A DNA stretch of 64,000 nt, taken from an uncultured delta proteobacterium. Lineage in GTDB: Bacteria; Myxococcota_A; Polyangia; Polyangiales; Polyangiaceae. Position numbers and translations under genes: made by a program. The stretch's first letter is position 1; each line of letters begins with the position of its first letter. The notes under the pieces are model-generated. The model made no database searches. It was not told the DNA's origin and saw only the letters and a list, made by a program, of their open reading frames with translations. The stretch is taken from positions 1-64,000 of the forward strand of contig CAVQUB010000034.1 of assembly GCA_963716725.1 (NCBI GenBank), given 5' to 3'. Shown here one piece after another: positions 1-9,517 of the stretch.

Positions 1-392
1 TCCGCCACCTGCTTCCTGACGCGATCGCGCGCAGGCTCGAGCATCGCGGCGACGTCGGGCGCCTTGGCCCCAAGCCGCAGCATCTCGTCGGCCCGGTCGA
101 ACTCGACCATGGCGCCCACGAGCTTGCCCTGGTTCTCGAGGCAGAACCCGAGGTGGTAGCGCAGCCCGGGAGTCTCCTTGATGGCCAGCGCTTCACGCAG
201 CTTGGCCTCGGCCTCGACCCAGCGCTCGGCCTTCTCGAGCTCGGTCGCGTCAGCGAATGCTCTGCGCGCAACTGCGACCTCGGCCGCGCTGGGCTCCGCC
301 CCGGCGTCGGGTGCGGCGCCGCAAAGAACTGCGACGACCAAGGCGACGACGAAGGCCGCGCGGGCGCGCGGCTGGCGAGAGTGTGATTTCAC
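1..392 (-). CDS. Exported TPR (PEGA-associated type) protein, 5' part; runs off window start
   Basis: Manual translation from GTG at 392: MKSHSRQPRARAAFVVALVVAVLCGAAPDAGAEPSAAEVAVARRAFADATELEKAERWVEAEAKLREALAIKETPGLRYHLGFCLENQGKLVGAMVEFDRA; signal-peptide-like N-terminus then TPR-like helices. Not in the ORF track because it is truncated. Confidence 0.75.
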   Translation of the reverse strand, partial: MKSHSRQPRARAAFVVALVVAVLCGAAPDAGAEPSAAEVAVARRAFADATELEKAERWVEAEAKLREALAIKETPGLRYHLGFCLENQGKLVGAMVEFDRADEMLRLGAKAPDVAAMLEPARDRVRKQVA

Positions 393-492
393 GAGAGCCC
401 CAGTTCCGGGGCAGTCTCGCAAGAACCTGATACCGCTGTCGATGACTTCGCTTGCCACCACCCGCAGGCTGAGCGATTCATGGGTGGCAAGG

Positions 493-1279
493 ATGAGCGA
501 AGCGAGCCCTCCCGGCCCCCCAGGCCCTCCTCCACCGCGGAAAGCGTCGCGCAAACCGGCCTCACCGGCCGACGGAGCGGGCTCCGATACGCCCCGCGAT
601 GGCCTGCCAGCCTTCGGTGACACTCCCGTGGACGGACCGCCGACCTTCGATGACCCGGACGAAGTTCCGCTGGCCGGACCGTCGCCCGATCACGCATCCG
701 CCTACGTGCCGCCGCGAGACATCCCCAAGCCCGCCGATCACAAGACCATCGACATCAGCCCGATCCGCATCTCGCCTGACGCCGATCCGCGCCGCGCGCT
801 GACTCAGAAGGCGATGCACGTGATCAAGCGCGAAGAGGCGCAGCGGCACCTCCTGTTGATGGGCGTCGACGCCACCGCGGCCACCCTCGATGCTCGCCCC
901 CCGCAGGCGTCGGAGTCCGGGGGCGATTCCGCCGGGAGGGGGCCGCGCTGGCCTGTTCATCGGGGGAGCCATCGCGGTGCTCGTGCTCGCGGCGGGCGGC
1001 TTCGTTGCATTCAAGATGGTGAATCCCGAGGCCGCGGAGATCGCAGCGCCAGCGTCGACGACGCCAGCAACGCCAGCAACGCCAGCGACGCCAGCGACGC
1101 CCGCGACTGCTCCCCCATCGGCCACGCCCACGCCCACGATCGCGATCGCTCCCGCGACGGCCGTCGAGCCAGTGGCGCTGCCTTCATCGGAGCCTTCACC
1201 TTCCGCGGCACCGACCCCATCGACCACCGGTCGCAAGAAGCAGCCGACCGAAGCCACGCCGAAGCCGATCAACGAGTAG
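493..1279 (+). CDS. Pro-rich single-pass membrane protein, apparently split by a +1 frameshift near the G5 run at 919-923
   Basis: ATG at 493 (MSEASPPGPPG...) in the frame of ORF 178..1380; TM segment GLFIGGAIAVLVLAAGGFVAF and TPA-repeat tail lie in ORF 890..1279. Removing one G at 919-923 joins them (SESGAIPPGGGR). Confidence 0.55.
1060..1107 (+). repeat. 9-bp tandem repeat (ACGCCAGC[A/G]) encoding TPA x ~5
   Basis: acgccagcaacgccagcaacgccagcgacgccagcgacgcccgcg seen directly. Confidence 0.8.
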
Positions 1280-1476
1280 CGACTGCGCTCACTTCAATAG
1301 GTGGCGAGCAGCCCGCGGGCCGGAACCGCCTGCCGCAACAAAGCCGGGACAAGCCCGCCCCAGAGCCGGCGCTCGCGTGACGCTCGCCGCGTGAACCCCA
1401 CCGGAACTTGCCAGTCCCGCCGGCCTGAGGGAATTTGCCGTCGCGCGAGCCAACTCGAGCTCGCCCTGCGAACGCC

Positions 1477-2520
1477 ATGAAGTTCCGCGCCCCTGCCTTC
1501 ACCGTTGCCATCGCCATCGCCGTCGCCGCGAGCAGCTTCGCGACGACGACGGCCCACGCCCAACCCCCAGTCGAAACACCGTCTGGGGCCACCAACGACG
1601 AGGCGTCCAAGCTCTTCAAGAAGGGCAACGATGCCTACAAGCTGAAGAGGTGGGACGAAGCCGAGACGGCCTTCGAAGAAGCGTGGGCGCTCAAGCGGAG
1701 CTACGACATCGCGGGCAACCTCGGCGACGTCGAGATGTACCTCGCGAAGTACCAAGAGGCCGCAGAGCACCTCGAATATTCGCTGCGCAACTGGCCCGCG
1801 GGACAAGAGGCCTCACGCGCGCGCACCGCGGAGCGCTTCGAAGAAGCCAAGAAGCAGGTCGGCACGCTGACCCTCAAGGTGACCAAGGGCGCCGAGATCA
1901 GCATCAATGGCAAGGCCGTCGGCAAATCGCCACTCTCGGGCCCCGTCTTCGTCACGCCGGGAGCCGCCACGGTGATCGTCACCCTCGGCGCCAAATCCGA
2001 GAAGAAGACCGTCGCGCTGGACATCGGCGAGGCCCGCGAGATCGAGATCGCAATTGCCGGAGAAGCGGCGGCAGTGGGGCCAGTGGGGCCCGGTGCGGCT
2101 GCGCCGGGCAGCGGGAGCGGGAGCGGAGACGGGGACGTCAAGCCACCGAGCGGATCGTCGGTGCGCAAGATCGGCATGATCGCGTCGGGCGCGGTGGCGG
2201 TGATCGGCCTCGCAGTCGGCGTCGGCTTCTACCTGATGAAGCAGTCGGCGAAGGATGACGCTGACGCGATCCGCTCAGACAACAAGCTTGGCAATAGCGG
2301 CTGCGCGGCGGGCGGTTCAAATGTCTGCGTTGACCTATCGGACGCCAACGATCGGGCCAAGAGCAACGGCACCATTTCGAACATCGGCTTCATCGGCGCC
2401 GGCGTGGGTGCGGCCGGGTACGTTGCGTTCATGTTGATGCCCAAGTCGAAGACATCGGCCATGCTGCATCCCATCTTGACCCCACACACCGCAGGCGTTG
2501 GCGCATTTGGTCGTTTCTGA
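1477..2520 (+). CDS. TPR + PEGA domain exported protein with C-terminal hydrophobic segments and terminal Phe
   Basis: Signal peptide MKFRAPAFTVAIAIAVAASSFATTTAHA; TPR-like ASKLFKKGNDAY...WDEAETAFEEAW; PEGA-like GTLTLKVTKGAEISINGKAVGKSPLSGPVFVTPG; two hydrophobic segments; ends AGVGAFGRF. Confidence 0.85.
   Translation: MKFRAPAFTVAIAIAVAASSFATTTAHAQPPVETPSGATNDEASKLFKKGNDAYKLKRWDEAETAFEEAWALKRSYDIAGNLGDVEMYLAKYQEAAEHLEYSLRNWPAGQEASRARTAERFEEAKKQVGTLTLKVTKGAEISINGKAVGKSPLSGPVFVTPGAATVIVTLGAKSEKKTVALDIGEAREIEIAIAGEAAAVGPVGPGAAAPGSGSGSGDGDVKPPSGSSVRKIGMIASGAVAVIGLAVGVGFYLMKQSAKDDADAIRSDNKLGNSGCAAGGSNVCVDLSDANDRAKSNGTISNIGFIGAGVGAAGYVAFMLMPKSKTSAMLHPILTPHTAGVGAFGRF
2056..2113 (+). repeat. 58-bp perfect direct repeat, copy 1 (inside PEGA gene, after the PEGA domain)
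   Basis: gccggagaagcggcggcagtggggccagtggggcccggtgcggctgcgccgggcagcg identical to 5787-5844. Confidence 0.95.
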
Positions 2521-2540
2521 CCATCAAGGGGACTGACTCG

Positions 2541-4085
2541 ATGAAGAAGCTCGGCTTTGCTTTCGTGTTCACGGCGATCGGCTTGTCTCCCGGACTGGTG
2601 GTCGGCTGCGGAGGCGACGACTTCGACTCGTGCGAGGCCGACGCGACGTGCCCGTCCAAAGACGGAGGCACCGGGGGCGCCAACACCGGAGGCGCCGGTG
2701 GCACCAACACCGGTGGCACCGGCGGTGCAGGCGGCACTTCGGGAGCGGGTGGTGCGGGCGGCGTGGCAGGCGGTGACGGTGGCACGTGCGACACCACCAA
2801 GAGCCCTAGTGAAGCCGCATGTCTCGTGGACGATCAGTACGCGGTATTCGTCAACGGGACGGCGGCAACAAGCGGGAGTGGCACCAGGTCGAGTCCTTTC
2901 AAGACAATCGGCGAGGCCCTCTCGGCCGCCAGCGGCAAGTTGATCTTGGTTTGCGTCACGACCTACGACGAGCAAGTCAAGGTGACGGGCGCTGCGAGCC
3001 TGCATGGGGGGTTCTCATGCAACGACTGGAGCTACGAGGCCGGAAAGCGCGCCGTGATCAAGCCTTCAGCGAAGGGCTTTGCCTTGGAGATCGACTCCGT
3101 GACCACCAAGGTTCTGGTTGACGATCTCGATTTCGCAGCAGCGAACGCCTCGGCACCGGGCGAGAGCAGCATCGCCGCGGTCGTGCGCGGAAGCGCCGAT
3201 GTCCAGATGCGGCGTGTGAAACTGGCCGGGGGCAAGGGGATGGCCGGAGCAAACGGCACGCTCGCGCCGCACGGCTTTCCCACGCAGGCTTCGCTGAAGG
3301 GGAACGACGCGAGCGGGACTGCGGGCGGCACCGAGAAGAAGTGCACATGCCCCGGCGGCGCGCTGACGACGGGCGGCATCGGGGGAACGGCATCCACGGG
3401 CGGTCAAGCCGGCGGCAAGGGCACGCCCGACACGGGCGGCGGCACTGCAGGTGATCCGGCCAAGGCCTGCAACTCGGGCGGCGGTGGCGGCAAGGGAAAC
3501 CCCGGCAAGTCGCTGACCGAAGCGGCCGGTGCCGCCACGTTCGGATTGCTCACGGCTTCCGGCTGGTCCCCCACCGGCGGGGCGAAGGGGAGCGATGGTG
3601 GGCCTGGCCAGGGTGGCGGCGGCGGCGCGAGCACCGCGTCCGGCGGTGGGGGCGGCGGCGGGTGCGGCGGGTGCGGCGGAGCTGGTGCACCTGGCGGCGG
3701 TGGGGGCGGCGCGAGCATTGCGCTGCTGGTTCTCGGTTCGACCGTGGGCATCGCTGCCGGATCTGAACTCTCGACAGCTGACGCGGGAGCCGGCGGGACG
3801 GGCGCGGGCGGACAGTCCGGTCAGATCGAATTTGGTTTCGCGGGCGCGTTTTCCGCCGACGGGTGTGCGGGCGGCGCGGGCGGCCCCGGCGGAACTGGCG
3901 CGGCGGGGGGTGGCGGCGCGGGCGGCATTAGCGTCGCAGTTGCCTGGAAGGGACCCGCTCCTCCGACCGTCGACAGCGGAACGAAGTTCACGATCGGCAA
4001 GAAGGGTGTCAAAGGCGCCGGTGGCAAGGCCGGTGTCAACGACGGCATCGACGGCATCGAGCAGGAAACTCTCGAAGTGCAATGA
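2541..4085 (+). CDS. Gly-rich (PGRS-like) lipoprotein A
   Basis: Lipobox-like LVVGC; GGxGG tether; GSGTRSSPFKTI motif (DUF1565-like); paralogous to 6298..7962. Confidence 0.85.
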   Translation: MKKLGFAFVFTAIGLSPGLVVGCGGDDFDSCEADATCPSKDGGTGGANTGGAGGTNTGGTGGAGGTSGAGGAGGVAGGDGGTCDTTKSPSEAACLVDDQYAVFVNGTAATSGSGTRSSPFKTIGEALSAASGKLILVCVTTYDEQVKVTGAASLHGGFSCNDWSYEAGKRAVIKPSAKGFALEIDSVTTKVLVDDLDFAAANASAPGESSIAAVVRGSADVQMRRVKLAGGKGMAGANGTLAPHGFPTQASLKGNDASGTAGGTEKKCTCPGGALTTGGIGGTASTGGQAGGKGTPDTGGGTAGDPAKACNSGGGGGKGNPGKSLTEAAGAATFGLLTASGWSPTGGAKGSDGGPGQGGGGGASTASGGGGGGGCGGCGGAGAPGGGGGGASIALLVLGSTVGIAAGSELSTADAGAGGTGAGGQSGQIEFGFAGAFSADGCAGGAGGPGGTGAAGGGGAGGISVAVAWKGPAPPTVDSGTKFTIGKKGVKGAGGKAGVNDGIDGIEQETLEVQ

Positions 4086-4091
4086 CCCCGA

Positions 4092-5012
4092 GTGAGCACC
4101 ATGGCCGTGCCGACATACGACCAGTTCATCGAGCCGCTGCTGCGCTATCTCTACGACAAGCGTGATGGGGTCGTTGCGCGAGAGGCGCATGACGCAGCGG
4201 CGGCCGCCCTGGGCCTGACCGAAGAACAGATGGCCGAGCTGCTGCCCAGCGGCAGACAGCGCGTTTACAAGAACCGGGCGGGGTGGGCACATGACCGACT
4301 GAAAAGGGCCGGATACTCCGCCAGCCCCAGGCGCGGTCACTGGTGCCTGACCGACGGCGGGCGCAAGTTCGTGGAGGCGCATTCCGCTCCACTCTCCAAC
4401 GACCTCGTCGAGAGGATCGCGACTGAACACGACGACGTTCGGCTATCCGTGGAGGGAGATCCTCACACCGCTGGGGCGCTTCCGCAGGCGGCCGCAAGTG
4501 TGTCTGCGAGCCCGGACGATCGACTGGAGGCAGCTGTTGCGGAGCTGCGCGCGACGACCAGTGGCGAGCTGCTCGAGGTGCTCGCCCAGGTCTCTCCGAG
4601 GTACTTCGAGACCATCGTGCTCGATGTGCTTCATCGCATGGGCTACGGAGCCACCCGCTCCGACCTTCAGCGAGTCGGAGGCTCGGGTGACGGGGGAATC
4701 GACGGCGTCATCTCGCTCGATCGCCTCGGCCTCGAAAAAGTGTACGTGCAGGCGAAGCGTTGGCAGGCGTCGGTGGGTCGTCCTGAGGTGCAAGGGTTCT
4801 ATGGTGCATTGGCCGGACACCGCGCGGCGAAGGGCGTGTTCATAACGACCTCGTCGTTCACCGCCCAGGCGCTCGACTTTGCGCGGTCGGTCGAGCGAAT
4901 CGTGCTGGTGGATGGGCTCAGGCTCACCGAGCTCATGATTGATTACGAGGTGGGTGTCACGATGCGCCCGATCCGAGTACCGAAGCTCGACACGGACTAC
5001 TTCGACGAGTAG
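4092..5012 (+). CDS. mrr: Mrr family type IV restriction endonuclease (Mrr_N winged helix + Mrr_cat)
   Basis: VPTYDQFIEPLL...NRAGWAHDRLKRAG...SPRRGHW N-domain; catalytic GDGGIDG...YVQAKRW...KGVFITTSSFT; ends KLDTDYFDE. Confidence 0.95.
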   Translation: MSTMAVPTYDQFIEPLLRYLYDKRDGVVAREAHDAAAAALGLTEEQMAELLPSGRQRVYKNRAGWAHDRLKRAGYSASPRRGHWCLTDGGRKFVEAHSAPLSNDLVERIATEHDDVRLSVEGDPHTAGALPQAAASVSASPDDRLEAAVAELRATTSGELLEVLAQVSPRYFETIVLDVLHRMGYGATRSDLQRVGGSGDGGIDGVISLDRLGLEKVYVQAKRWQASVGRPEVQGFYGALAGHRAAKGVFITTSSFTAQALDFARSVERIVLVDGLRLTELMIDYEVGVTMRPIRVPKLDTDYFDE

Positions 5013-5072
5013 CGCCAAGGTCGCCACCGAACTCGCACCCCGCGACACGACGCCGCGAGGGAGTGCGCACCC

Positions 5073-5429
5073 TCACCTCCCCGCAACCGCCGCCCGGACC
5101 AGCGCAACTGCCTGCGACAATTCCCGCCGCACCAACTCTGCCTCGACCCGCAGCACCGTGAATCCCCACCGGCGCAGGACCCGATCCCTGCGCGCATCAG
5201 CCGCGATGCGCCGCACGTGACACCCACCGTCGACTTCCACGACGAGCTTCAGCGTGGGCGCTGCGAAGTCGGCGACATAGCGCCCGATGGGCACCTGGCG
5301 CCGAAACGCGACGCCGAGCCGGCCGCCCCGCAGCTCGCGCCACAAGATTTGCTCGCTCTCGGTCATTGCAAAGCGCATCTCGCGAGCGCGTGCGATGATG
5401 AGCGGAGAGCTTCGGGGATGTTGAGCCAT
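5073..5429 (-). CDS. DUF559 (Vsr-like PD-(D/E)xK) endonuclease
   Basis: AREMRFAMTESEQILWRELR...FRRQVPIGRYVADF...LVVEVDGGCH...DARRDRVLRRWGFTVLR; ATG 5429 preceded by GGAGGAGG. Confidence 0.9.
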   Translation of the reverse strand: MAQHPRSSPLIIARAREMRFAMTESEQILWRELRGGRLGVAFRRQVPIGRYVADFAAPTLKLVVEVDGGCHVRRIAADARRDRVLRRWGFTVLRVEAELVRRELSQAVALVRAAVAGR

Positions 5430-5438
5430 GGATCTGCC

Positions 5439-5617
5439 TCCTCCCGGCGTGATGGCCGGGCTTTGCGAGTTCACGGCGCACGATCTGTGACACGCCGCTT
5501 CAAGGGCGCTCTCGACACGAGCTCACGTCGACGAAGCGCGACTTCGACTCGATCGGAACGCGGCGTGGCAAAGAGCGTGCGCCATCGAAGCGGAGCCCGG
5601 CCATCACGCCGGGAGGA
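5439..5617. repeat. Long fold-back element with 24-bp perfect inverted arms (5439-5462 / 5594-5617) and further internal stems
   Basis: tcctcccggcgtgatggccgggct vs agcccggccatcacgccgggagga; inner pairs ggcgcacg 5475-82/cgtgcgcc 5576-83, cacgccgc 5491-98/gcggcgtg 5560-67, gcgct 5506-10/agcgc 5535-39, tcgac 5512-16/gtcga 5527-31. Confidence 0.9.
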
Positions 5618-5695
5618 ACATAGCGACCGCTGCCCTCCCGAAGCTCACAACGAGGCCGCGCGACCGCGAGTTCGCAACGACGCGAGCGGGTCGAA

Positions 5696-5767
5696 GTCCC
5701 TCCCTGCCACGCGCAGCGGCGAAGCCGCGAGCATGGCTTTGGGAGGGACCGACGCCGCAAAGCGGCG
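5696..5767. repeat. REP-like composite palindrome
   Basis: gtccctccc 5696-5704 / gggagggac 5741-5749 enclosing gcggc-gaa-gccgc; followed by cgccgc-aaa-gcggcg 5753-5767. Confidence 0.65.
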
Positions 5768-5786
5768 GCGAGGGTGGGCAGGAAGA

Positions 5787-5844
5787 GCCGGAGAAGCGGC
5801 GGCAGTGGGGCCAGTGGGGCCCGGTGCGGCTGCGCCGGGCAGCG
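5787..5844 (+). repeat. 58-bp perfect direct repeat, copy 2 (start of orphan PEGA C-terminal cassette)
   Basis: Identical to 2056-2113; read in the same codon phase (AGEAAAVGPVGPGAAAPGS). Confidence 0.95.
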
Positions 5845-6284
5845 CGAGCTCGAGCGCGGGCGACACCGTCGAACTGGACTCGTCGGGCATGAAGCCACGC
5901 ACCCTCGCCCTCATCGCCGGAGCTGGGCTCACGCTCGCGGCCGCCGGCGTTGGCGTGTTCTACACCTTCGAGAAATCTGGCGCGCAGGACGACGCGGACA
6001 GCCTGCGGTCGGAGCTGTCGGAGAAATTCGGAAGCCAAGCCAGCGTCGGCTCCTCCGCCCCTTCGCAGTGTTCCGACTTGGTCGACGCTCTCGAAAAGCG
6101 AGATGACGCCAAGCAAATCTCCACCGCGGCGTTCATCGCGAGCGGCGTCTTGCTCGCAGCGACCACCGTGACCTTCCTGGCGTGGCCTTCCAAGAAGGCC
6201 AACGCACCCAAGGCCGGGCGCATCAGCATCTTCGGTGCCCCGCAGTGGCACGGCGCGATGATGGGCCTGACCGGTAGCTTCTAG
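5787..6284 (+). pseudogene. Orphan C-terminal half of a TPR-PEGA protein (no signal peptide, TPR or PEGA)
   Basis: Begins with the 58-bp repeat; then TM (LALIAGAGLTLAAAGVGVFY), AQDDADSLRS (cf. AKDDADAIRS in 1477 gene), second TM, ends MMGLTGSF. Confidence 0.75.
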
Positions 6285-6297
6285 AGGGGCAATCACC

Positions 6298-7962
6298 ATG
6301 CGTATTCGTCGTCACTGTCTGGGTGTGTTCATCGCGTCGTCGGCGCTCGCTGGCCTCTTTGCCGTCAGCGCCTGCGGCGGCGAGGAGTTCGCCTGCGAAG
6401 ACTCGCTGAGCTGCGGCAGCGGCGGCAAAGACAGCGGGTCCGGCGGGTCCGGCGGATCTGGCGGCAAGGACGGCGGCACCGGCGGAACTGGCGGCACCAG
6501 CGGCACCGGCGGCACCGGCGGCGCGGGCGGAGGATCGGCGGGCGGTGACGGTGGCGGCTGCGACACGAGCAAGAGCCCAGGCGAGGAGGCGTGTCTGATC
6601 GACGACCAGCACGGGATCTTCGTCTCACCCGCTGGCAATGACTCGACGGGTGACGGCACCAAAGCAAATCCGTACCTGACCTTGAGCCAGGCGCTCAGCA
6701 CCGCGGGGACCGCGGGCAAGAACGTCTACGCGTGTGACAACGGCACCGCACTCGCCGAGACCAGCACGCTGGCGGTCACCGCCGCGCACGACGGTCATGG
6801 CATGTACGGCGGCTTCGACTGCGCGAGCTGGGCGTGGTCCGCGGTCACCAAGGTCAAGGTCAACGCGGCGGCGATCGGGATCGCGATCAACGGCGTTCCG
6901 AACAGCTTCGTGGTCGAGAGCTTCGACATCGCCGCCGCCAACGCCGCCAATTCGGGCGAGAGCAGCGTCGGCGCCGTGGTCGTGAGCTCCAAGGGCGTGG
7001 CCTTCAAGGGAGTGAAGATCACGGCCGGCGACGGCAAGGCCGGCGGCGCGGGGGCCGATGGCAAGCCGGGAACAGACGCGGCGGCCGCGGCGGCGGCGCA
7101 GAACGGGACGGCAGCGACGTGCAGCGGCGCGCCGGCTCAGCAGTTTGGTGGATCCTGGAGCGGACCGAGCGAGTGCGGATCGCTCGGCGGCGTTGGCGGT
7201 CCGTCGGCCAAGGCGGCAGCGGGCCTCCCGGGCGGAGACGGAACGCCGAAGGCCAACGTGACGCCTCCCAGCTTCGTCAACGGCGGCCCGGCCGGCAGCG
7301 GAACCGGCAACGGCGTTGGGGGGACCGCGGGCTCCAACGGCAACGCGGGCACCACCGGATCCGTGGCCACCGCAGGAGCCTTCACCTCCGCCGGCTTCAC
7401 GGCTGCAAACGGCAACGACGGAACCAACGGCTTCCCCGGTCAGGGCGGCGGCGGCGGCGGCGCGAGCGCGAGCACGTCATCCACCTGCATCGGCGCGTCC
7501 GGCGGCGCCGGCGGAATGGGCGGCTGCGGCGGCGGCAAGGGCACCGGCGGCAAGGGCGGCGGCGCGAGCGTCGCGTTGCTGTCCTGGCAGAGCACCGTGT
7601 CGCTCACCGGTTGCGATCTCACTTCCAAGACGGGCGGCGATGGCGGCAAGGGCGGCGACGCCGCGGCGGGCGGCTCGGGCAAGTCCGGCGGCGGCGGCGG
7701 CGGGGCCGCGGGCGGACTCGGCGGGGGCGGAGACGGCGGCAAGGGCGGCACTGGCGGCCCGGGCGGCTCGGGCTCCGGGGCCTCGGGCGGACCGAGCTAC
7801 GCGCTGGTCTGGAGCGGCGACAAACCTGCTAGCGCATCCACCACGCTCGGCGAGGGCGCGGGCGGGGCGAAAGGCGCCGCGGGAAAGCTGCAAGGATCCG
7901 GGCTGAACCCCGCGCCCGAGGGCAGCGCGGGCGCGGCGGCAAAAGAGTACGAGCAGAAGTGA
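6298..7962 (+). CDS. Gly-rich (PGRS-like) lipoprotein B, paralog of 2541..4085
   Basis: Lipobox VSAC; shared blocks CDTSKSPGEEACLIDDQHGIFV / CDTTKSPSEAACLVDDQYAVFV, GGFDC/GGFSC, GESS, GGGAS[V/I]ALL. Confidence 0.85.
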   Translation: MRIRRHCLGVFIASSALAGLFAVSACGGEEFACEDSLSCGSGGKDSGSGGSGGSGGKDGGTGGTGGTSGTGGTGGAGGGSAGGDGGGCDTSKSPGEEACLIDDQHGIFVSPAGNDSTGDGTKANPYLTLSQALSTAGTAGKNVYACDNGTALAETSTLAVTAAHDGHGMYGGFDCASWAWSAVTKVKVNAAAIGIAINGVPNSFVVESFDIAAANAANSGESSVGAVVVSSKGVAFKGVKITAGDGKAGGAGADGKPGTDAAAAAAAQNGTAATCSGAPAQQFGGSWSGPSECGSLGGVGGPSAKAAAGLPGGDGTPKANVTPPSFVNGGPAGSGTGNGVGGTAGSNGNAGTTGSVATAGAFTSAGFTAANGNDGTNGFPGQGGGGGGASASTSSTCIGASGGAGGMGGCGGGKGTGGKGGGASVALLSWQSTVSLTGCDLTSKTGGDGGKGGDAAAGGSGKSGGGGGGAAGGLGGGGDGGKGGTGGPGGSGSGASGGPSYALVWSGDKPASASTTLGEGAGGAKGAAGKLQGSGLNPAPEGSAGAAAKEYEQK

Positions 7963-8065
7963 AGCGACGGTCCGTGTCGCAGGGCGCCACCTGCGTCACC
8001 TGGCCAACCGGCCAGGTGGCAGCGCCCCCAGCACCGCGATAGTCTGCTCCTCCCGGGAGGGCTCC

Positions 8066-9517
8066 ATGACTAAGCGCACTGCGTTCTCTTCGCGCGCCGC
8101 GTTTCGCGCCGCGCTCAGCATCGGCTTCGTTGCTTCGACCACGTTCACGTTGATGCCTGCGTGCTCGGGCGGCGATGACTTCACTGCCAAGAACACCGGC
8201 GGCGCGACCAACACCGGAGGCAGCGCGGGTGATGCAAGCACCACGGGAGGCTCCGGCGGAGCCGGCGGCTCGGCCGCGAGCGGCGGCGTGTCGGGTGGCG
8301 GCGGCGTGTCGGGTGGCGGCGGCGTGTCGGGCGCCGGCGGCGTGTCGGGTTCGGGCGGCGAGGCGGGCGCCGGCGGAGCGGCGGGCAGCGGCGGCGAGGC
8401 GGGAGCTGATAGCGGCAGCGGCAAAGCGGACGGCAAGCCGTGTGCGAACAAGACCGAGTGCAAGAGCGGCTACTGCGTCGACGACGTCTGCTGCGAGAGC
8501 GACTGCGCGGGCCTGTGCAGCACCTGCAAAGCCTCGGGAAAAGAGGGCCTCTGCACCTCGTATGCGGCAAATACGGACCCCGAGGGCGACTGCACGGGCG
8601 CGGGCACGCCCACCGATCCCTGCGCCGGCACCTGTGATGGCAAGAGCGCCTGCACCTATCCCAGTGGGTCGAAATCGTGCGCAGCGCAGGTTTGCTCCAG
8701 CAGCGTTCAGAGCAACTTCGCGTGCAGCGGCGCCGGCGCCTGCGTGAAGGCGGACAAGTCGTGCGGAAACTACCAGTGTTCAGGGCCTGGGTGCCTCACC
8801 CAGTGCAGCGCCGATGCGGAGTGCATCTCGACGACCTACTGCAAGGCTCCGACCTGCGACCTCAAGCTCGACTTGGGCAAGGCGTGCCCGAAGCCCTCCG
8901 CTTGCAAGAGCGGGATCTGCTTTGGCGGAACGTGCTGCAACGCGACCTGCGGCGCGAACTTCGAGTGCTCGAGCGGTTCGTGCAAGTGCAACGGCCAGAC
9001 CTGCGACGCCGGCCAGGCTTGCGTGCTCTGGTATCAAGACTCGGACAACGACGGGTTCGGCAACGCCGCCAAGGCCATTCTCGGTTGCGCGAACAAGAAG
9101 CCGGCCGGCTACGTCGCGGACAAGACTGACTGCTACGACGCCAACGCCGACGCGAAGCCAGGGCAGACGCAGTGGTTCCCCAACCACCGAGGCGACGGCA
9201 AATTCGACTACAACTGCGACAATACTGCCGAGCAGTACTACAAGACGGTCTCCGGCGCGTGTCAGTACTGCAGCAAGGTTCTCGACAAGGACCCACCCTG
9301 CAACGCCGCCAGCTACGACTGCTGGTGCGACATTTTTTCCTGCACGCTGGGCTCGAACTCAGGCCTGAGCGCCGACGGACCTTGCGGAACCATCGTGACC
9401 CTCAAGACCTGCACTCAAGACACTGCCTTCGAGCCCATTCCGGGCGGAGGTGCCAAGAAGGTCTGCGTCGCGAGCGCGCACGCGAATTCTTCGCAGACCG
9501 CGCAGCTCTGCCGCTGA
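8066..9517 (+). CDS. Cys-rich lipoprotein with putative metal-binding (MopE-like) motif
   Basis: Lipobox MPAC; Gly tether; many C-x-x-G-x-C-C repeats; WYQDSDNDGFGN...DCYDANADAKPG...FDYNCD. Confidence 0.8.
   Translation: MTKRTAFSSRAAFRAALSIGFVASTTFTLMPACSGGDDFTAKNTGGATNTGGSAGDASTTGGSGGAGGSAASGGVSGGGGVSGGGGVSGAGGVSGSGGEAGAGGAAGSGGEAGADSGSGKADGKPCANKTECKSGYCVDDVCCESDCAGLCSTCKASGKEGLCTSYAANTDPEGDCTGAGTPTDPCAGTCDGKSACTYPSGSKSCAAQVCSSSVQSNFACSGAGACVKADKSCGNYQCSGPGCLTQCSADAECISTTYCKAPTCDLKLDLGKACPKPSACKSGICFGGTCCNATCGANFECSSGSCKCNGQTCDAGQACVLWYQDSDNDGFGNAAKAILGCANKKPAGYVADKTDCYDANADAKPGQTQWFPNHRGDGKFDYNCDNTAEQYYKTVSGACQYCSKVLDKDPPCNAASYDCWCDIFSCTLGSNSGLSADGPCGTIVTLKTCTQDTAFEPIPGGGAKKVCVASAHANSSQTAQLCR
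8282..8353 (+). repeat. 4 x 18-bp tandem repeat (GGVSGG) within lipoprotein tether
   Basis: ggcggcgtgtcgggtggc x2, then two variant copies. Confidence 0.85.

Follow-up and report, generated by a model that had tools for sequence, protein, structure and literature searches.

Silent-cassette antigenic variation is known from Neisseria pilE/pilS, Borrelia vlsE and the Mycoplasma genitalium MgPa repeats, and kin recognition in myxobacteria involves the variable domain of TraA as well as SitA toxins, which are lipoproteins with C-terminal toxin domains and small SitI immunity proteins. Orphan C-terminal modules are known from CdiA loci and likewise from Rhs loci. For Rhs orphan modules, Koskiniemi et al. 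(2014, PMC3967940) describe recombination between the main gene and an orphan, which yields a fusion expressing the orphan tail. Here, we analyze a locus of comparable architecture in the first 64 kb (the window) of contig C34 (CAVQUB010000034.1) from an uncultured member of the Polyangiaceae, in which a complete gene for a tetratricopeptide repeat (TPR)/beta-sandwich protein with an A-type tail (1477..2520, plus strand) is followed by a headless B-type C-terminal module (5787..6284, plus strand), each with a lipoprotein gene behind it. The genome (G000) is metagenome-assembled and consists of 7.9 Mb in 35 contigs at a completeness of 84%.

The reading we favor, and consider probable, is that homologous recombination has shaped an orphan-module locus resembling those of Rhs and CdiA, with no toxin domain detectable in the protein family. 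The locus is a tandem array with a copy number that varies by genome. A complete gene, with its promoter region and signal peptide, is present only in the first unit; later units each consist of a 5'-truncated copy with its own lipoprotein gene, spaced by a dispersed DUF559/hairpin element. At their 5' ends, the truncated copies retain sequence that exactly equals that of the complete gene (58 nt, the repeat R, in G000 and 110 nt in the related genome G002), which looks like the outcome of gene conversion or like a crossover tract left when the array was formed. Homologous recombination over this shared stretch could then join the constant head (TPR and beta-sandwich) to a different tail, the exchanged part being the linker, the helical hairpin, the beta-hairpin and the start of the next lipoprotein gene, and the same step would delete or displace the previous tail. 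Such exchange would take place on population and evolutionary timescales and would maintain the at least two tail types (A and B, ~35% identical) that are found on near-identical heads in at least three species.

Exact anchors, arrays and fused alleles

The complete gene and the orphan share the direct repeat R (2056..2113 and 5787..5844, both on the plus strand), which is perfect (100%) over 58 nt and retains 96% identity when extended to 70 nt. Repeat comparison and an identity profile give it sharp boundaries, with 9 of 30 positions identical in the 30 nt upstream and ~50% identity downstream. Both copies open at codon position 1, in the same phase as the initial annotation had it, and encode AGEAAAVGPVGPGAAAPGS; copy 1, located where the constant part gives way to the variable part, codes for the conserved GEAAAVGP motif and the beginning of the linker, and copy 2 is the first 58 nt of the orphan. 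The spacing from R to R is 3731 nt. The gene layout given in that annotation was likewise recovered from the open reading frames (ORFs), the Pfam matches and the palindrome. GEAAAVGP is present in the aligned copies of the genus except both G006 copies, G003_u4 (GGAAAVGP) and two copies shown without this region, and the break between constant and variable sequence falls directly after it in G000 and G002.

A protein search over 41 genomes, G000 included, followed by gene maps of the stretches concerned, found same-genus genomes with many partial matches clustered beside one full-length match. The repeating unit is a gene copy, a lipoprotein gene and then an opposite-strand DUF559 gene, and one full gene with 1–7 truncated units makes up the arrays of G001, G002, G003 and G004. 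The largest is that of G003, with a complete copy and four truncated units on its contig C6 and two further units on its contig C2; these probably form a single array with as many as eight units, given that both stretches stop at contig ends, and it is flanked by homologs of the window genes at 3–623 and 8066–9517 (a Cys-rich lipoprotein). In G002, two truncated units follow a complete one. G001 repeats the order of the window, including the Mrr gene, with an "orphan" of only ~12 codons of the gene, and in G004 and G005 the junctions lie on short contigs. G006 differs, with copy 1 frameshifted, copy 2 complete and of full length, and copy 3 truncated. One expression site with promoterless partial copies is the layout found in G000–G004. 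The B-type module is the last in both the G000 and the G002 arrays, a position expected if newer modules displace older ones downstream. The search for more R copies and headless C-termini that the initial annotation had proposed gave a split answer: the 35 contigs of G000 hold two copies of R and no third, whereas headless copies are present in relatives. An orphan C-terminus with a homology anchor is borne out both by the exact 58 nt of R and by these arrays.

Exact tracts also connect expressed and truncated copies in relatives. Unit 1 and unit 3 (a B-type orphan) of G002 share an exact 110-nt tract at the 5' start of the orphan, and unit 1 of G003 shares exact tracts of 70–125 nt with each orphan, compared with 80–83% overall identity; the exact tracts are far longer than the overall identity predicts. 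The ratio of non-synonymous to synonymous substitution rates (dN/dS) is 0.15–0.28 in all 11 pairs computed, including orphan–orphan pairs within G003, and the units therefore diverged as working genes under purifying selection and not by decay in place. Either the divergence took place elsewhere, in complete genes that were gathered later, or the orphans themselves would be under selection.

The read-level data are Logan contigs from the runs X1, X2, X5 and X6. In X6, a wastewater metagenome from a study other than that of the best holders, a 3462-nt contig at a depth of 18 follows the window over 1122–2114 and then over 5846–8309, skipping exactly 3731 nt at R. This fusion of head, R, B-type tail (CtB) and lipoprotein B (LipB) is the product that the initial annotation had predicted for R–R recombination, and it also exists as a protein, P0001. 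Module A is almost uncovered in X6, where low cover outside the bridging contig is not evidence in itself. A search for longer B-tailed proteins returned six full-length ones of 353–362 aa (P0001–P0006). P0001 is identical to the window gene at 181 of 194 head positions (93%) and to the orphan at 148 of 156 tail positions (95%). P0004 matches G002 unit 1 in its head (180/189) and the G002 orphan unit 3 in its tail (154/157), and P0005, together with the near-identical metagenome contig L051, combines a head matching the G001 gene (183/188) with a B-type tail. L051 was the one useful contig from a metagenome scan with the alignment as query; with P0001 as query the scan gave no match. Compared with the tail expressed in the matching genome (four genomes compared), the tails of P0001, P0004 and P0005 are 34–39%, 32–37% and 30–34% identical. 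Hence heads that are 93–97% identical carry A and B tails that are 30–39% identical, and the same head occurs with either an A- or a B-type tail in three species lineages, the pattern that the initial annotation had asked relatives to show.

Encoded proteins and the DUF559/hairpin spacer

We characterized the complete gene through its ORF, an AlphaFold2 (AF2) model, Foldseek and an 18-sequence alignment. In its product, a signal peptide precedes a TPR region and a PEGA-like beta-sandwich, and a low-complexity linker then leads to a helical hairpin, which holds two hydrophobic segments, and to a C-terminal beta-hairpin. The AF2 model of the complete protein has a mean predicted local distance difference test score (pLDDT) of 72.6 and places a signal helix at the N-terminus, followed by TPR helices (residues 37–125) and the beta-sandwich (129–191), both regions at a pLDDT >90. 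A disordered linker (197–226) leads to two ~40-residue helices with one hydrophobic segment each, and the loop between them holds a Cys pair (C276 and C284) that is invariant in the alignment; the terminal beta-hairpin ends in Phe, and the pLDDT of the tail is 55–70. With the complete protein as query, Foldseek returned TPR proteins and carboxypeptidase regulatory-like sandwiches (E ~1.5e-3). The TPR-PEGA label of the initial annotation survives in part: the beta-sandwich is modeled confidently, but all TPR matches are under the Pfam cut-offs (best 22.9 versus 27 bits) and the PEGA model (PF08308) scores 17.7 bits versus a cut-off of 20.8, over 20 of 71 profile positions. With a sub-threshold Pfam score and a confident beta-sandwich, the PEGA label is plausible and unproven by sequence. 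In Pfam and NCBIfam, the complete protein matched TPR and sub-threshold PEGA only, neither tail matched a family, and no toxin, enzyme or transport family was detected. Three tail classes (A1, A2 and B) occur in the genus.

Lipoprotein A (LipA; 2541..4085, plus strand) combines a lipobox and a Gly-rich linker with a core modeled as a beta-helix-like solenoid, with high confidence in parts. The Foldseek matches of this core are weak only, to right-handed beta-helix enzymes and tailspikes, with a pectin-lyase-fold protein as the best (E 6.4e-3), and LipA matches no Pfam family. LipB (6298..7962, plus strand) has a signal peptide of the MRIR type, the type found after B-type tails. As the initial annotation had proposed, both the tails and the lipoproteins are pairs of diverged homologs, with 34–41% identity between the A-type tail (CtA) and CtB and 41% between the LipA and LipB cores. 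A regular expression found a lipobox-like pattern in 12 of 13 frames, the exception being G006_u1, where no start could credibly belong to a lipoprotein; Cys23 is shared by all 12 lipoproteins aligned. Judging from the models, the TPR/sandwich protein would be periplasmic and membrane-anchored and would most likely act in an envelope complex with the beta-helix-like lipoprotein.

The pairing of the two genes is not restricted to the arrays. A paralogous locus on contig C25 of G000 has one complete gene and one lipoprotein gene, and the gene–lipoprotein pair recurs at four of the more distant loci compared (L012, L014, L015 and L017); a scan of genome contigs gave just one distant locus. At C4:167027-174276 of G000, a complete TPR/sandwich gene is followed by four tandem lipoprotein paralogs, reaching the contig end, which are 57–72% identical to LipA in segments and have no truncated gene copies between them.

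The spacer of the array is the DUF559 repeat element E (5064..5786, minus strand; ~720 nt), which combines a DUF559 ORF, a long imperfect palindrome and an end motif, and whose right end abuts the truncated gene. The ORF (5073..5474, minus strand) matches PF04480 with 98.3 bits, compared with a cut-off of 20.6, over profile positions 5–105 of 109. The palindrome (5439..5617) covers the 5' end of this ORF, and its arms (5439–5462 and 5594–5617) are a 24-nt perfect inverted repeat; matches of the palindrome to plant miRNA precursors in Rfam scored far under the cut-offs and reflect the long hairpin only. At each unit boundary of G002 and G003 there is a block that matches 5064–5786 with 75.7–78.8% identity, and the right end of the element is fixed to within ~3 nt in all genomes having the junction. 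The residue at which this end joins the truncated gene differs, being ~55 in G004, 79 in every G003 unit, 170 in the two G002 units, 194 in G000 and G005, and 336 in G001. DUF559 is hence the unit spacer of the array and not incidental cargo, given that it is the spacer in all six genomes having the junction.

The end motif (~5696..5786, ~90 nt) carries a covarying hairpin. It has eight copies in G000, mostly adjoining or upstream of other DUF559 genes, and those outside the locus are at C3:150526, C5:376883, C6:108429 and C13:82100, 85856, 137566 and 144708. With the stem arms paired by script across these copies, the stem has 9 bp with three compensatory variants, and a distal G-rich element co-varies with it; the motif also holds an inner hairpin and a second short hairpin. 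Its folding z-scores are -3.4 and -4.6 relative to shuffled controls, no Rfam family matches it, and candidate roles are a regulatory RNA, a binding site for a protein or the end of a repeat element. Two of the other copies in G000 run on into a 7-nt string equal to the first 7 nt of R, which points to microhomology at the window junction.

Further features of the element were noted in single copies. An ATG in the end motif (5734–5736) is found in the window only, with ACG in five other genomes, and it gives an in-frame 183-codon ORF reaching into the orphan tail. By eye, 5738–5782 contains four G3 tracts, two on each side of a short hairpin, in a pattern absent from the other genomic copies; these tracts might form a G-quadruplex. 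In G002, the hairpin region of the element before the third unit is split by a ~2-kb insertion with a 460-aa ORF (L024, G002:C1, 14159–15541, minus strand) that resembles a group II intron reverse transcriptase/maturase by motifs, again judged by eye. Clusters of two to three DUF559 copies with 86–92% identical flanks and few ORFs of coding-like GC content at the third codon position (GC3) lie at C34:142349-150775 and C13:81235-88625 of G000. They are possible hot spots of the same repeat element, and the element loci at C34:142–151 kb and C13:78–90 kb contain no comparable gene arrays.

On the left, the array is flanked by a divergent paralog of the TPR/beta-sandwich family with a weak TPR_2 match (3..623, minus strand), which is truncated because the window begins at base 1 of the contig; homologs of this gene flank the arrays of G001, G003 and G006 with 57–75% identity. 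On the right, the conserved flank is the Cys-rich lipoprotein gene (8066..9517, plus strand), whose homologs follow the last unit in G003 and G006. The Mrr-type restriction endonuclease gene between the units (4092..5012, plus strand; Pfam Mrr_N 86.4 bits and Mrr_cat 133.1 bits) lies inside the array in G000 and G001 only, and the G001 ortholog is 71% identical. The intergenic region ahead of the complete gene (624–1476) contains repeats with a 9-nt period at 1043–1107 and several small insertions and deletions between the metagenome runs compared. A sigma-70 promoter scan of 1000–8200 found no site, and a terminator scan found sites to be rarer than in shuffles.

Alternative readings of the truncated units

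Under the orphan-module reading, recombination at R would have made the fused allele or, in the other direction, the array; we infer further that orphans are as a rule not expressed and that selection acts on the diversity of tails. Several observations weigh against parts of this. Relative to the window, the X6 contig has 74 differences and 13 gaps over 993 nt in the head region, compared with 58 differences over 2464 nt in the tail and LipB. The greater divergence of the head hints that the window imported head and module A together, and the X6/P0001 allele could be the ancestral state instead of a deletion product. Insertion of module A and the nucleases with displacement of the original 3' end, which the initial annotation had offered as its alternative, fits at least as well; the arrays and the element junction common to several species favor a deletion in the X6 lineage. 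No R–R joint occurs in the contigs of X1, X2 and X5, which is a weak point given that contigs drop rare variants. The window orphan has Ser at the first invariant Cys, where 18 of 18 aligned family members and P0001–P0006 have Cys, and frameshifts are present in three of seven G003 truncated copies and in three of seven of their lipoprotein genes. Some cassettes therefore seem to be decaying; the first G003 unit is free of frameshifts, and sequencing error is possible for the others. Finally, the five distinct junction positions share one reading phase relative to the end motif, with a chance of ~(1/3)^4. Recombination among silent modules does not predict this, and the orphans may be translated.

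The lipoprotein does not behave as the cognate partner of the tail that the initial annotation had assumed, which is a further point against that reading as first drawn. Lipoprotein cores fall into classes LA, LA2, LB and LC, and LB sits behind tails A1, A2 and B. In a Mantel test on 11 intact units, with frameshifted units excluded, tail and lipoprotein-core distances correlate weakly (r = 0.30, p = 0.08). The B tail is tracked only by the first ~40 residues of the lipoprotein (the MRIR signal peptide and the first Cys motif; three of three cases), a linkage that adjacency alone could explain, and a complex prediction of the LipA core (81–514) with the A-type tail (195–347) scored 0.00, which speaks neither for nor against binding. 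On these comparisons a cognate role of the lipoprotein core is not supported, and because the core does not co-vary with the tail, the lipoprotein would not be an immunity-like partner.

The shared junction phase speaks for the rival that fares best, in which the truncated units are working genes. A start codon and signals in the end of the DUF559 element would drive a headless membrane protein, translational coupling would yield the downstream lipoprotein, and R would be a gene-conversion tract without a role in switching. This would also suit a TTG kept in the orphan frame, the window ATG at 5734, a dN/dS of 0.20–0.24 among intact orphans, lipoprotein starts 13–20 nt past the stop of the preceding frame, and the C4 locus with one complete gene ahead of four lipoprotein genes. 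The upstream region of the element, however, is non-coding-like, with GC contents at codon positions 1, 2 and 3 of ~0.7/0.75/0.7, compared with 0.6/0.55/0.83 in real genes, and by eye it offers no obvious well-spaced Shine–Dalgarno sequence. The ~12-codon orphan of G001, the frameshifted G003 copies and the Cys lost from the window orphan are also hard to reconcile with function, and we regard this explanation as unlikely.

A programmed and frequent cassette switch, in which breaks by the DUF559 nuclease or at the hairpin/G-rich motif start recombination between expressed and silent copies in the manner of pilE/pilS, is slightly more doubtful. It draws on the nuclease gene and structured motif found at every unit boundary in six genomes, the junction that always falls at the same element end, the exact conversion tracts and the A/B dimorphism across species. 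But seven further copies of the element in the genome have no such gene in their vicinity, so that it is not dedicated to this locus, and DUF559, a family of Vsr-like nucleases of the repair or selfish type, is not known to act in recombination. R–R recombination is moreover a one-way deletion, the contigs of the likely source samples hold no variant joints (a weak test), and some cassettes are decaying. A more far-reaching version, to which we give a similarly low probability, makes the DUF559/hairpin element an active organizer of the array, whose nuclease or structured, G-rich end would cause breaks that time and again yield in-frame 5'-truncated cassettes and drive exchange of the membrane-embedded tail of an envelope receptor. 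If true, this would be nuclease-driven surface diversification in free-living myxobacteria, with A and B tails kept by balancing selection (phage, bacteriocin or kin recognition).

Neutral debris has still less in its favor. Hairpin repeats are common breakpoints of rearrangement, and element-driven rearrangements or tandem duplications might have left pseudogene fragments beside a fused allele that is simply the undisturbed ancestral gene; the frameshifts in G003 units, the lost Cys and the group II intron that landed in one element copy would all be consistent with this. Against it stand orphan dN/dS values well under 1, junctions that are in frame, exact anchors that are maintained, and an A/B dimorphism that recurs on the same head in three species, and we judge it improbable.

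An assembly artefact, in which the assembler was misled by the 58-nt repeat and placed a segment that is circular or comes from a second strain in the chromosome, would suit a metagenome-assembled genome with the locus 1.5 kb from a contig end and Logan contigs interrupted at R, where X1 record 3 stops (2113) and X5 record 21 begins (5787). It is very unlikely, also as the fate that the initial annotation had allowed for the second R, because the order of gene, LipA-like, Mrr, DUF559, stub and LipB-like recurs in G001 with a junction that has no R repeat to mislead an assembler, G002–G005 hold equivalent arrays and the X1 depth is even across the region.

Comparison with described systems

In the literature covered, which does not extend to subscription journals, we found no description of the protein family or of such orphan arrays in myxobacteria. 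Arrays of orphan modules have so far been a hallmark of polymorphic toxin genes. Here, they occur, together with direct evidence of alternative fusions at the population level, in an uncharacterized envelope family of environmental Polyangiaceae in which no toxin domain is detectable, which suggests that recombination with spare tails is a more general way to diversify cell-envelope proteins. The A/B dimorphism in three species points to long-lived selection on a small membrane module, which becomes a target for study, and the dispersed DUF559/hairpin element at the unit boundaries gives an uncharacterized nuclease family a testable genomic role.

The likeness to TraA and SitA/SitI is one of setting: the same phylum, polymorphic envelope proteins and lipoproteins, and strain-level allelic diversity, but no relation in sequence or domains. 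Silent-cassette systems too have one expression site, promoterless truncated copies nearby and exact conversion tracts between expressed and silent copies. Unlike in those systems, each cassette brings another full gene with it, a fusion of the deletion type is the sole product observed, high-frequency variation is not evidenced in data that are contigs only, and the organism is a free-living environmental myxobacterium and no pathogen exposed to immune pressure.

The closest match is with Rhs and CdiA. As there, a complete gene with a constant N-terminal part is followed by downstream fragments that have no start or export signals and have kept their homology, each fragment has its own partner gene after it, and very different tails are found on near-identical heads. 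In contrast to Rhs and CdiA, the locus is without Rhs/YD repeats, a CdiB partner and a PxxxxDPxGL or VENN motif, and its boundary motif is GEAAAVGP; the tail forms a helical hairpin that contains two hydrophobic segments, and no toxin domain was detected in it, the downstream gene encodes a ~520-aa lipoprotein, and a DUF559/hairpin element lies between the units. The architecture is thus already known from polymorphic toxins. What is new here is its presence in a protein family without toxin hallmarks, with a partner gene that does not co-vary and a DUF559/hairpin element at every boundary with in-frame junctions.

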